Part shown: positions 42,035 to 59,080 of the stretch, one piece after another
Layout: every line of letters begins with the position of its first letter
How positions within the stretch are numbered: position 1 is the first letter of the stretch
Sequence record: OK272472.1
Strand: one strand, 5' to 3'
DNA: 64,000 bases
Source: Escherichia phage JLBYU28
Made by a program: the position numbers and the translations under genes
The notes under the pieces: generated by a model
The model's database searches: none
Told to the model about the DNA's origin: nothing
What the model saw: only the letters and a program-made list of their open reading frames with translations

Positions 42035-43141
42035 TTAGTTTGGTTTAGCGTCAGAACGAACGTCTACCAGCAACTGAGGACGTGTGCAGTATGGCAGCAT
42101 GTAAGAGTGAGCTTCAAAGTCAATACCTTCGTCACGGTCTTTTTCGTATTCGAATACGTACAGTTCCTGACCAAGTGTATTTGCATAACCCATCTTAGGG
42201 CATGGGCCATATGCCACTTCGAAGATGTTGTTAGCTTCACCCAGCATAGAAACGTTAGGGAAAGCATGACCTACACCAACAGTTGCTGCTACACTATCAA
42301 TGCTCACCAGAGTGTGAACCTTACCACGCTTGTCTTTGAACTTACCGTTGTACTGGACAAACTTAACACCACCATAGTAGAAAGTATTCATATGAGCCTG
42401 AACGCCGTCAGTACCACCAGTTCTCAGAGAACCAGTAATCTGTTGCCAAGCCAGTGGAGTCTGCTGTGCAAGATAAGCGTCACGAACCTTAGGATGCTTA
42501 GTCAGTTTGCTGAAGAATACACGGTCAACAACTACGTGAATTTCTTCACCGTTGATTACAGTGCCGGTCTTCGCTTCGTCTTCCATGTGCATACGCAGTT
42601 CTTCAATAGAAGCGTCGATGTCAGCATTAGGATTGTCAAGGTCGAAGTAAATAGTCTTCTTCTCAACGTCAAACTGCTTGTACAGGTCAGCGTACAGAGT
42701 ACCACGAGCATCAACAACTTTACCCTTCAGAGCTTGCATAAACAGGAACTCACGAGTAATATCGAACTTGGTACGAATCTTCATCAGCTTCTTGGCACGT
42801 ACTACAGCTTCAGTAGTCAGTTCGTTTGCAGTGCCTGGCTGACGTACACCCTGAATTTCATCAGGAGTGATGCTTTCAACTTCTTTGAAATACATCATTG
42901 GGAAGCTGATTTGACGAACACGCTCAGGTGCGCTAGTCTCTGCTTTACGGCTATCACGGTCTACCGCATCAAGCAAGCTAACATCCCAATCAGTCAAGTC
43001 CATAAGGAAAGTAGTTTGGGTGATTGGTGCTGAACGGAACAGACCTAAGTTGGAAATATACCCATAAGTATTTGGGATAGACTGGACTTCACCAGTCAGG
43101 TCAGCAAGGAAAAATCTGCTTTTTTCAGAATTAGTCAACAT
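42035..43141 (-). CDS. Major capsid protein
   Basis: 368 aa downstream of protease/scaffold and a small decoration-like gene; the 308-aa antisense ORF on the plus strand is treated as spurious. Confidence 0.55.
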   Translation of the reverse strand: MLTNSEKSRFFLADLTGEVQSIPNTYGYISNLGLFRSAPITQTTFLMDLTDWDVSLLDAVDRDSRKAETSAPERVRQISFPMMYFKEVESITPDEIQGVRQPGTANELTTEAVVRAKKLMKIRTKFDITREFLFMQALKGKVVDARGTLYADLYKQFDVEKKTIYFDLDNPNADIDASIEELRMHMEDEAKTGTVINGEEIHVVVDRVFFSKLTKHPKVRDAYLAQQTPLAWQQITGSLRTGGTDGVQAHMNTFYYGGVKFVQYNGKFKDKRGKVHTLVSIDSVAATVGVGHAFPNVSMLGEANNIFEVAYGPCPKMGYANTLGQELYVFEYEKDRDEGIDFEAHSYMLPYCTRPQLLVDVRSDAKPN

Positions 43142-54200: not shown

Positions 54201-55615
54201 TACCAGATATAACGGTCAATCATTACTGCTTTGAGCATTACACTAATTGGGTCAAACTTCTCACCACCAAGCAGAGCTTTTAAAGTGGCTGGAGAGAAAC
54301 CAGATACCATTGCTACACCGTTATCCTTAACAGATACTTCGCAAGTACCATTACGGTTTGCTAAGTACCAGAATACCAGTTGTGGCATCTCATATCCAGC
54401 TTTTTTGTACTTACTCTGAATTGCTTCAAAGTTTGTACGACCGTTAGCCCCATCAACCTGATTAAACTCCATATCGGAGAAGATGATAAGCTTACTTGGC
54501 ATATCTTTCTGAGTCAAGTTGTTTCTTTTACCTGTCTCAAGAATACGGTCAAAAGCTGCTTGTAAGCTAGTTGAGCCATATTCAACATGACGCATCACCT
54601 GACGATGACGGTTTCGTAAATCACCACTCAGTTCGATGAAGTGAGGGTTTGTTGAGTAAACCATTAACTCATTCTTAAAGCAACCAGTGTTGCGTTCTGC
54701 TACATACAAGGCGAGGGATACACCAATATCAAGGGCAGTGATTGAACCAAGATTCACCCAAGACATTGAGCTTGAAACATCAGTCATACATAGGATGTTT
54801 TCACCCTCTGCCATCCAGTTTGGTAGTGCTTTCCACTGCTCATTAGCAACATCTGCATTACCATACTTGATAGATTTAATCACATCGTATGGGTAAACAG
54901 CACCAGCGTTAATCTTAGTCTCACCTTTTGATAATGACTCAGTGTAAGCTTTGTAGCGTTCTCCATCTTTACGGTTAAAGAGTTTTTGGTAACGTGCAGC
55001 AGCGAGTGAAGGAATCTTGCTGTAGTCAATCTTACCGAACTCATTAGCAGAGATTTTTTGCTCAACCGTATCAGAAAGTGCAGACAACAGTGTGCGGTAC
55101 TCTTTCTCACTTAAGTTAGCAAACTTGCAGAAACGTTTTACAAACTGTTTGTGTCGTGGTTTTACTCGTGGTAACCACTTGGATGCTAAACCTGCTGTTT
55201 CAGGGTCTAGTAATGCTGCTTCTAAATGCTTAAAGGCATCTGTCTCGAAACGAGTACCTACGAAGATTTTGAAGTCATCAAAACGACCAAGCTCTGCAAT
55301 CTTATCCATAATGCGAAGAACCTGCGTAGGCTCTAAAACTTTATCTTCAATCGCTTGAAGCAAAACAGTTCTGAAGGCTTTACGCTCACCCATACCTTCT
55401 CGTACATCTCGCATATGCAGTAAAATACGAACTGCAACATCAACATCCTCATGCAAAGCTTTGTAGAACAGGTCTGGTAAGATTTCTACATTGCTACGGC
55501 TAGAACCAGCAGCTTTGTAAAAGTCTACAAGAGCAGACATTGATGAAGTATGGTTTACAGCACCATTTTCAGTTCGACCTGCATGAAGGTGCGCATGTTT
55601 AAATAATTCGCTCAT
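54200..55615 (-). CDS. vWA-domain protein with N-terminal helical domain (possible Ro60/TROVE-like architecture)
   Basis: 471 aa; C-terminal MIDAS-like MTDVSSSM and LIIFSDMEF; N-terminal TENGAVNHTSSMSALVDFYKAAGSS segment; family assignment is tentative. Confidence 0.5.
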   Translation of the reverse strand: MSELFKHAHLHAGRTENGAVNHTSSMSALVDFYKAAGSSRSNVEILPDLFYKALHEDVDVAVRILLHMRDVREGMGERKAFRTVLLQAIEDKVLEPTQVLRIMDKIAELGRFDDFKIFVGTRFETDAFKHLEAALLDPETAGLASKWLPRVKPRHKQFVKRFCKFANLSEKEYRTLLSALSDTVEQKISANEFGKIDYSKIPSLAAARYQKLFNRKDGERYKAYTESLSKGETKINAGAVYPYDVIKSIKYGNADVANEQWKALPNWMAEGENILCMTDVSSSMSWVNLGSITALDIGVSLALYVAERNTGCFKNELMVYSTNPHFIELSGDLRNRHRQVMRHVEYGSTSLQAAFDRILETGKRNNLTQKDMPSKLIIFSDMEFNQVDGANGRTNFEAIQSKYKKAGYEMPQLVFWYLANRNGTCEVSVKDNGVAMVSGFSPATLKALLGGEKFDPISVMLKAVMIDRYIW

Positions 55616-56480: not shown

Positions 56481-56695
56481 AAATCGCAGACATTATAGAT
56501 TTATATCAAACTGCAAAGAGTCATGGCTATATAACCTCGATTGGAAAGAATAGTCACTATGATGCTTTGACTGGAATGTATTTCAGGGCAATGGCTCAAT
56601 CTAGTGAACAACACTTAATGGTTTCTTCCAGTGAGTTTACTTCGTTTCTCTATTGCAGCAAAATTATAAACCGCAGGAGAACTGAAAAATGTTAA
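56462..56695 (+). CDS. Hypothetical protein
   Basis: 77-aa ORF. Confidence 0.4.
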   Translation: MCSSQLEIADIIDLYQTAKSHGYITSIGKNSHYDALTGMYFRAMAQSSEQHLMVSSSEFTSFLYCSKIINRRRTEKC

Positions 56696-57279
56696 CAGTA
56701 AGTTTTAATTACAATAGTGATGGCTCTGTATCAATTAATTCACCATATGCAAATGACCTACTTAAAGAGCTAGTTAATCAGTGTGAGAGGGGTCTTCACT
56801 ATGTTCAAAATTCTTTTAAACAGAAGACTATTGCTAATAACTTGATGCGTGTAACAGTGACGGCATCGAATCCAAATTATAACTTTGATAGTGAAAGTCC
56901 GTACTCATTAGTTGCGCTTGGAGAGTCCAGCCAATTCAAACTTGTTTGCCACGACTCAGAAACATTCCTTAAGGTCTTTTCCAACCTTATCCACAATAAT
57001 AAGTACAGCTACGTTGATGGTAGTGTAAACTTCTATCCAGCAAACTATACATGTTTGTTAATTGATAATATGAGAAAAAGTAAGCAAGAGCCTACAGAAA
57101 TTTCATTTGATGTGAACTCTAGTCCAGACGCAGAAACAAGTAAGAACTTTGATATGAGTTACGCATTGTCACTCAGTAAGAAATCCGAGTTCATTGATTA
57201 TGTCAATGGATTTGGTTTTAAGTTTGATGAGAGTATGAATCTTAAAAAACTTAAGAACCTACTTAAGACTAAAGCTTAA
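56689..57279 (+). CDS. Hypothetical protein
   Basis: 196-aa ORF followed by a terminator. Confidence 0.5.
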   Translation: MLTVSFNYNSDGSVSINSPYANDLLKELVNQCERGLHYVQNSFKQKTIANNLMRVTVTASNPNYNFDSESPYSLVALGESSQFKLVCHDSETFLKVFSNLIHNNKYSYVDGSVNFYPANYTCLLIDNMRKSKQEPTEISFDVNSSPDAETSKNFDMSYALSLSKKSEFIDYVNGFGFKFDESMNLKKLKNLLKTKA

Positions 57280-57286
57280 GTGTGAA

Positions 57287-57315
57287 CAGGGGCTGATGCC
57301 CCTTTAATTATTTAT
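57287..57315 (+). terminator. Intrinsic terminator
   Basis: AGGGGC-TGAT-GCCCCT followed by TTAATTATTTAT. Confidence 0.55.
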
Positions 57316-57326
57316 AAGGATATTTA

Positions 57327-57698
57327 ATGAAGGCTAAGAGTGCAAAAGACTTTTATTGCTTCCTACAATCCTATATCAACTCCGTGCAAAATGGTGAAAG
57401 GTACAGCCTTAATGATGTTATCCCAACACCTTTGACATGGAGACTCAGCAAATGGCCTGAAGAAGATATTACACCAACAAGCGAACAGCGTACCTACAAA
57501 CCTGAAATCAATATTCCAGACTCTGAGAATCTATTATATCCAATGTTTCATATTGTTGGTCTTGGAAGATTCCTTATGGATATCCAGTATGTAATTGGTA
57601 AAGGTTATAAGGTTAAAGGTATCGTTGTTGGTGACGTATCTCCGCATCACAAAGGTTATTTTAGACTAAACGCACATTTAGAGGCTAAAAAGAAATGA
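57327..57698 (+). CDS. Hypothetical protein, paralogue of the N-terminal domain of the next gene
   Basis: Shares RY..WPE.DI..YKP..LLY..FFMDLQY..LNA pattern with 57695-58579. Confidence 0.5.
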   Translation: MKAKSAKDFYCFLQSYINSVQNGERYSLNDVIPTPLTWRLSKWPEEDITPTSEQRTYKPEINIPDSENLLYPMFHIVGLGRFLMDIQYVIGKGYKVKGIVVGDVSPHHKGYFRLNAHLEAKKK

Positions 57699-58579
57699 TT
57701 AAAGCAAAGACTTACCCAGACTTCAAAGAGTTTGTGAAGGGCTTCATTGCAAATGTAAAGGCTGGTAAGAGATATGATTTTAGAACATATCAAGAGGCTA
57801 TTTTACCACTCACCTATAGCTCATATTGGCCTGAAGCTGATATTGCAGAGGTTAAGAAGTTTGACTACAAACCAGACTACAAAGTCCCTTTTAGTGATGA
57901 ACTCCTTTACAGTGTTGGTGCACAGATGAGAACTGCTGATTTCTTCATGGATTTGCAGTATGCAATCATCAATGGTAAAGATGTTGACACAATTTACTGT
58001 GAATGGTTGGCAAGAGTTAAGCCGTTCTCAATGTTGAATGCTAAGTTGAAGGATGCCATCACACCACCATCAATCACTCAGCAACCAACAAACCAAACAG
58101 TTAATGAGGGTGGTACACTCACTCTAAGTGTTATTGCAACGAATGTCACTGGATATCAATGGAAAAAGGATGGTGAGGATATCACTAGTGCCACCTCTGC
58201 AACCTACACAAAACAGTCTGTAGTGCCTTCTGATGCTGGCTCATACACTTGTGTTGTATCTGGGGAGGCTGGAACAAGTGTTACCTCAGATGCGGCAACA
58301 GTTACTGTGAATGCACTTCCTGTAATCACTCAACAACCAGCCAATCAGGAAATCACTGAAGGAGAGACCTTAACGCTGAATGTTGTGGCTACTGGTGCAA
58401 CAGGTTATCAGTGGAAGAAAGGTGAGGAAGTCATCCCAGACGCAACTGCTGCAACTTACACCAAAGAAGGTGCAACCGCTGCTGATGCAGGAAGCTACAC
58501 CTGTGTAGTGACTGGTGCAGGTGGCTCTGTAACATCTAATGCAGCAACAGTTACAGTTAATCCAGCAGGGGAGGCATAA
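57695..58579 (+). CDS. Protein with two tandem Ig-like repeats
   Basis: Two ~80-aa repeats each with ITQQP.NQ..EG.TLTL.V.AT..TGYQWKK...AGSYTCVV...VTS.AATVTVN. Confidence 0.55.
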   Translation: MIKAKTYPDFKEFVKGFIANVKAGKRYDFRTYQEAILPLTYSSYWPEADIAEVKKFDYKPDYKVPFSDELLYSVGAQMRTADFFMDLQYAIINGKDVDTIYCEWLARVKPFSMLNAKLKDAITPPSITQQPTNQTVNEGGTLTLSVIATNVTGYQWKKDGEDITSATSATYTKQSVVPSDAGSYTCVVSGEAGTSVTSDAATVTVNALPVITQQPANQEITEGETLTLNVVATGATGYQWKKGEEVIPDATAATYTKEGATAADAGSYTCVVTGAGGSVTSNAATVTVNPAGEA

Positions 58580-59043
58580 TGCAACTCTCAAGAAAAGGTT
58601 TAGAGGCTATTAAGTTCTTTGAAGGTCTGAAGTTAGAGGCTTACGAAGACTCTGCCGGAATCCCGACAATCGGGTATGGTACAATCCGTATTGACGGAAA
58701 ACCTGTTAAGATGGGCATGAAAATTACTGCTGAACAAGCTGAACAGTATCTTCTCGCGGATGTTGAAAAGTTCGTTGCAGCAGTGAACAAAGCTATCAAG
58801 GTTCCAACTACTCAGAACGAGTTTGATGCACTTGTAAGTGAAACATACAACATCGGTATCACAGCTATGCAGGAATCTACATTTATCAAGCGCCACAACG
58901 CTGGTAATAAGGTAGGTTGTGCAGAAGCTATGCAGTGGTGGAACAAGGTTACAGTCAAAGGTAAGAAGGTCACTTCAAACGGTCTGAAAAACAGACGTAG
59001 AATGGAAGCTGACATTTATCTTGACAGTGTATACCCAAAGTAA
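58579..59043 (+). CDS. Endolysin, GH24 (T4-lysozyme-like) family
   Basis: KGLEAIKFFEGLKLEAYEDSAGIPTIGYGT matches the GH24 catalytic-region signature. Confidence 0.75.
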   Translation: MQLSRKGLEAIKFFEGLKLEAYEDSAGIPTIGYGTIRIDGKPVKMGMKITAEQAEQYLLADVEKFVAAVNKAIKVPTTQNEFDALVSETYNIGITAMQESTFIKRHNAGNKVGCAEAMQWWNKVTVKGKKVTSNGLKNRRRMEADIYLDSVYPK

Positions 59044-59052
59044 TATCTTCAT

Positions 59053-59080
59053 AGGCTCCTTCGGGAGCCTTTTTTATTTT
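59053..59080 (+). terminator. Intrinsic terminator after endolysin
   Basis: AGGCTCC-TTCG-GGAGCCT followed by TTTTTTATTTT. Confidence 0.7.

Follow-up and report, generated by a model that had tools for sequence, protein, structure and literature searches.

Why would a phage keep, far from its structural genes, a small protein of 123 amino acids (aa) beside a larger one of 294 aa that begins in a similar way and continues into two immunoglobulin (Ig)-like repeats? The question is raised by positions 57,327 to 58,579 of a 64,000-nucleotide (nt) stretch of Escherichia phage JLBYU28 (OK272472.1; the whole stretch is termed the window herein), which belongs to a Felix O1-like Felixounavirus myophage: 251 phage records match this region, almost all from Felix O1-like myoviruses of Escherichia, Salmonella, Shigella, and Citrobacter, with top matches of ∼96% identity. 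As one joint statement, we consider it highly probable that the 294-aa protein is the head decoration protein called Hex-Dec in phage Bas63 and gp20 in phage Sf14, that the 123-aa protein is a paralog of its capsid-binding domain (CapBD), and that this paralog is dispensable and absent from the virion. A preliminary description, made from the sequence alone, had reported a paralogous pair with Ig-like repeats in one member, located upstream of the endolysin and outside the structural module. That reading was right but is not new, since the placement and the Ig architecture were published in 2010 and 2025, and it needs one correction, namely, that the larger protein decorates the head and is neither a tail protein nor another kind of surface protein. 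The only new item is the recognition of the Ig-less CapBD paralog together with its natural loss and chimera variants.

The gene for the 294-aa protein (57695-58579, plus strand; calculated mass of 31.5 kDa, isoelectric point [pI] of 4.7) has near-identical matches in the PDB, to 9NCF chain S (“Immunoglobulin-like domain protein,” 460 aa; E value of 5e-247) and to chain S of 9C2D and 9C3A (“putative tail protein,” 372 aa). The former is an icosahedral capsid reconstruction of the Felixounavirus Bas63, in which the protein (bas63_0124) was named Hex-Dec (PMC12609058), and the latter two are capsid reconstructions of the Mooglevirus Sf14, in which it was named gp20 (PMC11821841). The CapBD (aa 1 to 120; 57695-58054, plus strand), which contains Arg79 and Arg107, is 96% identical to the modelled part of the Bas63 chain and 88% identical to that of Sf14, and its AlphaFold2 model superposes on both (Foldseek template modelling [TM] score of 0.81, root mean square deviation of 3.7 to 3.8 Å). 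Judged by these comparisons, the 294-aa protein is an ortholog of Bas63 Hex-Dec and Sf14 gp20 and a head decoration protein, not a tail protein; its placement on the particle is known because it is orthologous to the solved structures.

In those structures, Hex-Dec/gp20 is located at the centres of edge (quasi-3-fold) hexamers in a T=9 capsid and not on the true 3-fold hexamers, the hexamer centre is acidic, and the Ig domains, of which there are one to four per protein across the genus, are flexible and project outward (PMC12609058, PMC11821841). Arg79 and Arg107 of Sf14 gp20 form salt bridges with Asp221 of the major capsid protein (MCP), and the protein is excluded from the 3-fold hexamers, where Asp221 is displaced in two of its three copies (PMC11821841). 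The same anchoring set is complete in the window: Hex-Dec carries both arginines, and the MCP (42035-43141, minus strand) is ∼99% identical to that of Bas63 and retains Asp221. Each of the 60 edge hexamers would therefore be expected to hold one CapBD monomer in its acidic centre, with Arg79 and Arg107 as the anchors to Asp221 and with two acidic I-set Ig domains projecting outward as in T4 Hoc. The preliminary description had suggested checking whether either protein is particle associated, and for the larger one the answer is affirmative: the 31.6-kDa Felix O1 ortholog gp36, called a “tail protein,” was found in CsCl-purified virions in 2010 with 44% mass spectrometry (MS) coverage (PMC3185647), and Sf14 gp20 was likewise detected by virion MS (PMC11821841). 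Presence on the edge hexamers is thus established for the orthologs by cryo-electron microscopy (cryo-EM; Bas63 and Sf14), alongside the MS detection of Felix O1 gp36 and Sf14 gp20, and would extend to the protein studied here by orthology. By analogy to T4 Hoc, the Ig domains may mediate adhesion to surfaces, mucus, or glycans.

The only discordance with this assignment comes from the databases, with their label of “tail protein.” In the majority of GenBank and PHROG annotations, the 294-aa protein is a tail protein or an “HK97 major tail subunit”; PHROG 3995 and many records carry the label, and the Ig region does resemble the Ig domains that are attached to major tail proteins (PHROG 158 and 853). 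This similarity is limited to the Ig domains, however (aa 96 to 212), and the orthologs were built into capsid maps at hexamer centres in all three PDB entries. The cryo-EM structures refute the tail reading, to which we give next to no credence, and the labels of PHROG 3995 and most GenBank records are wrong. The correction is of practical value, as Hex-Dec is mislabelled in this way in hundreds of Felix O1-like genomes, among them those of phages considered for therapy and biocontrol, and a Hoc-like head decoration protein offers a ready-made display scaffold.

Both Ig-like repeats proved to be genuine Ig domains. Domain 1 (aa 125 to 208; 58067-58318, plus strand) and domain 2 (aa 209 to 290; 58319-58564, plus strand) are modules of ∼83 aa with a mutual identity of 67%, and both contain the motifs TGYQWKK, AGSYTCVV, and AATVTV, from which the repeats had initially been recognized. 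All Pfam matches are above the gathering thresholds (Ig_3, 79 bits versus 30; Ig_2; I-set, 58.7 bits versus 23.7), with E values of 1e-16 to 1e-22, and AlphaFold2 predicts two beta-sandwiches (predicted local distance difference test [pLDDT] score of >95) that Foldseek matches with a probability of 1.0 to tandem I-set structures (Robo, titin, and MuSK). Hex-Dec is 210, 294, 377, or 461 aa long in related loci, and module comparison indicated that the window version retains the first and last modules of the longer ones: in the 3- and 4-Ig versions, the ortholog of domain 1 is the first module (89 to 94% identity) and that of domain 2 is the last (90 to 93% identity). The CapBD itself is uncommon. 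A word-indexed homolog search returned close relatives only, and remote members emerged when 1.84 billion representatives were searched exhaustively with a HMMER profile, which yielded only 11 clusters, none of them T4-like. Apart from Ounavirinae-type proteins, these include a few remote members, in which the CapBD is fused to a Big_2-like domain (P0094 and P0095), to a different Ig-like domain (P0097), or, with no Ig domain, to a low-complexity tail rich in Lys, Ser, and Glu (P0096). Together with the I-set fusions, these sequences indicate that the CapBD is a rare, portable anchor module.

The proposed paralogy of the two proteins, at ORF coordinates that were given exactly, is borne out by several searches. 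The 123-aa protein (57327-57698, plus strand; 14.25 kDa, pI of 9.1) is 37% identical to the first ∼120 aa of the 294-aa protein over 101 aa (BLASTP E value of 3e-15), PHROG cross-matches between the two are reciprocal (E values of 1e-14 and 5e-17), and it matches the solved CapBD of 9NCF chain S (phmmer E value of 1.6e-11). On the sequence level, this relationship is far beyond chance, and the small gene would descend from an old duplication of the CapBD alone. The longest stretch of DNA identity between the genes is one of 21 nt with the codons for WPEEDI (57453-57473, plus strand), which is 86% identical to 57827-57847 in the Hex-Dec gene. The paralog is a full-length member (E value of 1e-79) of PHROG 4463, a 123-aa family of “unknown function” to which Felix O1 ORF81 and the copies in both solved phages, Sf14_gp21 and bas63_0125, belong; the VpaE1 copy is gp40. 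Neither structure paper mentions the paralog or its relationship to the CapBD (PMC12609058, PMC11821841), and some UniRef and GenBank entries call members of the family “tail protein” by similarity. Nei-Gojobori ratios of nonsynonymous to synonymous substitutions are 0.12 for the paralog versus 0.045 for the CapBD, 0.13 for Ig domain 1, and 0.08 for the lysin, values that mark the paralog as a real gene maintained by purifying selection.

The two genes form a unit with a third, the endolysin gene, which lies downstream as originally described (58579-59043, plus strand) and encodes a T4-type lysozyme of 154 aa (Pfam PF00959 Phage_lysozyme, E value of 3e-41; PHROG 7). The paralog stop codon overlaps the Hex-Dec start codon (ATGA), the Hex-Dec stop codon overlaps the endolysin start codon (TAATG), and Hex-Dec has start signals of its own, a Shine-Dalgarno GAGG, which is a conserved element near the end of the paralog gene, and an ATG. 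Terminator-like hairpins flank the three genes on both sides. The 5′ boundary is a GC hairpin, AGGGGCTGATGCCCCT, followed by a T-rich tail (57288-57303, plus strand), and the unit is closed by a strong intrinsic-terminator-like hairpin with a T-run (59053-59080, plus strand), which is an annotated terminator in phage Barry. No sigma-70-like promoter was found directly upstream of the paralog, and promoter-like sites in the region were not above the expectation from shuffled sequence. In 25 IMG/VR loci spanning all three genes, the order is the same: the paralog, the ATGA overlap, Hex-Dec, and an endolysin start a few bases from the Hex-Dec stop. The paralog would thus be cotranscribed and translationally coupled with Hex-Dec and the endolysin and, because of this coupling, is presumably a late gene. 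Upstream, the conserved 5′ hairpin separates the paralog from a 196-aa ORF (56689-57279, plus strand; full-length PHROG 4034 match, E value of 2e-115), which is always found 5′ of the paralog and measures 195 aa in a distant lineage (L035). The four-gene order is the same in a far more divergent metagenomic phage, whose paralog (P0092) is <50% identical to that of the window.

The paralog varies naturally. It is pseudogenized or recombined away in roughly 8% of relatives, and the lineages in which it is pseudogenized, a state seen in phages fKMPT1 and CECAV_041, retain an intact Hex-Dec; therefore, the paralog is not required for Hex-Dec. In Salmonella phage SP3_SHan-2021 (MW296865; locus L032, 2501-3379), a single 292-aa chimera joins aa 1 to 48 of the paralog to Hex-Dec from AEVKK on, with the crossover at the shared WPEEDI-coding stretch and one gene's length deleted, so that this phage carries a natural lobe-swap mutant. 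The most conserved part of the paralog, aa 67 to 120, is nearly invariant from Felixounavirus to Mooglevirus and differs from the same region of Hex-Dec. We expect that the paralog is not a stable virion component and is dispensable for plaque formation.

What, then, does the paralog do? Our best guess, held tentatively, is that it binds the hexamer centres of the capsid or procapsid transiently or weakly, displaying nothing, and it could in that way serve as a placeholder or adjust the occupancy by Hex-Dec. Its basic character contrasts with the acidic hexamer centre, and it is altered at exactly the residues whose geometry bars Hex-Dec from the 3-fold hexamers. Several findings weigh against any role at the capsid, among them the intact Hex-Dec of the pseudogene lineages. 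In 21 of 21 paralog sequences, Gly takes the place of Arg79, and Arg107 is replaced by Gln or His. The virion proteome of Felix O1 extends down to proteins of 9.7 kDa and does not include the paralog (PMC3185647), which appears to be absent from VpaE1 virions as well, judging from the main text of that study, by which the set of 22 proteins differs from that of Felix O1 only by gp54, gp58, and gp68; in this respect, the particle association found for the larger protein does not extend to the smaller one. The Bas63 and Sf14 maps have no density on hexamers unoccupied by Hex-Dec, and both phages encode the paralog (PMC12609058, PMC11821841). Lastly, the AlphaFold2 model of the paralog is of moderate quality (pLDDT score of 60), and Foldseek did not recover the CapBD with it. 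A more specific version of a capsid role, which we consider improbable, makes the paralog a functional second hexamer-centre ligand that the two substitutions have retuned toward the true 3-fold or procapsid hexamers that exclude Hex-Dec. If so, duplication of the anchor domain would provide separate occupants for the two geometrically distinct kinds of hexamer in a T=9 shell, and natural mutants for studying this would already exist in the SP3_SHan-2021 chimera and the pseudogene lineage. Stable occupation of the true 3-fold hexamers, which number 20 and are free of Hex-Dec, with contact residues fitted to the shifted Asp221 geometry, is decidedly improbable. The paralog would, by its sequence homology, share the fold family of the CapBD; it is basic and coexpressed with Hex-Dec, and it has changed exactly the two positions that contact Asp221, two of whose three copies are displaced at these sites; moreover, such an occupant might have been overlooked as a small protein and as a monomer on a 3-fold axis, smeared by icosahedral averaging. 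However, both cryo-EM papers state that the other hexamers lack density although both phages encode the paralog, the Felix O1 proteome and, by inference from the text, that of VpaE1 detected proteins of 9.7 to 16 kDa but not the paralog, and about 8% of relatives have lost it. Were the paralog nonetheless to recognize this second class of hexamers, the pair would neatly exemplify how paralogs can read quasi-equivalent sites on a capsid.

It is also possible, if somewhat unlikely, that the paralog has left the capsid altogether and reuses its small helix-hairpin fold to bind a target of host or phage origin; the timing of lysis, takeover of the host, and counter-defence are examples of such roles. 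The loss of both capsid-anchoring arginines, the absence from virions, the nearly invariant aa 67 to 120 that are unlike their Hex-Dec counterpart, and the location within a block of small nonstructural ORFs by the lysin all point in this direction. On the other hand, the tight translational coupling to Hex-Dec has been kept over a long divergence, and no positive evidence points to any alternative partner: searches of PADLOC, NCBIfam, and Pfam gave no match and no link to defence or anti-defence, and the paralog has no transmembrane segment and is therefore not a holin. A holin or lysis role was set aside on the grounds that sequence inspection found no hydrophobic segment (grand average of hydropathy of −0.48) and that there were no family matches. 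A further alternative is a programmed −1 frameshift at T AAA AAG close to the paralog stop codon, which would yield a minor CapBD-CapBD-Ig-Ig fusion, comparable to other phage structural proteins that gain Ig domains by frameshifting. Hex-Dec does lie in the −1 frame, a slip at AAA AAG reads through (“E-M-I-K...”) into it, and AAA AAG is shift prone in Escherichia coli (dnaX). The heptamer is noncanonical (X = T), though, and it is disrupted in 2 of the 20 Felixounavirus loci, and none of the 7 Moogle/Susp-type loci in which the pair is conserved has it; furthermore, no paralog peptides were found in virions and Hex-Dec has its own GAGG and ATG. The fusion was rejected as scarcely credible, with a motif that is noncanonical and not conserved. 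The paralog gene ends with GCT AAA AAG AAA TGA (57680-57698), and the slip motif present in 18 of the 20 Felixounavirus loci is probably incidental. We therefore rank weak hexamer binding first, a role unrelated to the capsid second, and stable occupation of the 3-fold hexamers a distant third. The paralog leaves a limited question, that of why a bare capsid-anchor domain is retained long term beside a decoration gene though it is not in the virion.

The placement outside the structural module, which the preliminary description had found unexpected, is confirmed by the wider window. The module, from terminase to tail fibres (large terminase, portal, protease, MCP, sheath, tape measure, and tail fibre), occupies ∼25.8 to 48.9 kb on the minus strand, and the MCP gene lies 14.5 kb from the pair and on the opposite strand. 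The Felix O1 paper had already remarked that the gp36 gene is far from the morphogenesis genes (PMC3185647), and the Hex-Dec/gp20 gene was likewise found >10 kb outside the structural module (PMC12609058, PMC11821841). A 308-aa ORF with a GTG start (42107-43033, plus strand) runs antisense within the MCP gene and is almost certainly a noncoding shadow ORF. A 22-gene tRNA array follows (49284-54034, minus strand), directly adjoined by a gene for a 471-aa DUF2828 and DUF7788 protein (54200-55615, minus strand; PHROG 850, “RNA-binding protein”), a pairing that is kept in TP1, Felix O1, VpaE1, and Sf14. The plus-strand block of small genes that includes the paralog and Hex-Dec begins near 56.3 kb. 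Among the matching records, “Staphylococcus phage SA1” has a Felix O1-like region with a paralog 99% identical to that of the window; since phages of this enterobacterial group are hardly expected to infect Staphylococcus, a labelling error or contamination is the probable explanation.

Compared with known decoration systems, the closest are Bas63 Hex-Dec and Sf14 gp20, the direct orthologs, which have in common with the window the Arg79 and Arg107 contacts, the MCP partner, the order of paralog, Hex-Dec, and lysin, and the I-set Ig modules. The sole difference is the number of Ig modules, two here versus four in Bas63 and three in Sf14, and two-Ig versions are already known from Felix O1 (gp36), Sf13, Sf17, and CHB7. 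The likeness to T4 Hoc, which is nonessential, lies in a monomer at the hexamer centre with a small capsid-binding domain and an acidic string of Ig-like domains. However, T4 Hoc is of another family and has the reverse domain order, with its capsid-binding domain at the C terminus, and the CapBD of Hex-Dec is larger and pseudo-C2-symmetric with a distinct topology (PMC12609058); matches to the Hoc-like PHROG 2973 and 4069 are limited to the Ig region (aa 121 to 292), which places the protein outside the T4 Hoc family. The T5 decoration protein pb10 (PDB 5LXK) has an Ig domain that matches aa 214 to 291 of the window protein (E value of 7e-12) but differs in its single Ig domain, in its T=13 capsid, and in having no detectable similarity to the capsid-binding domain.
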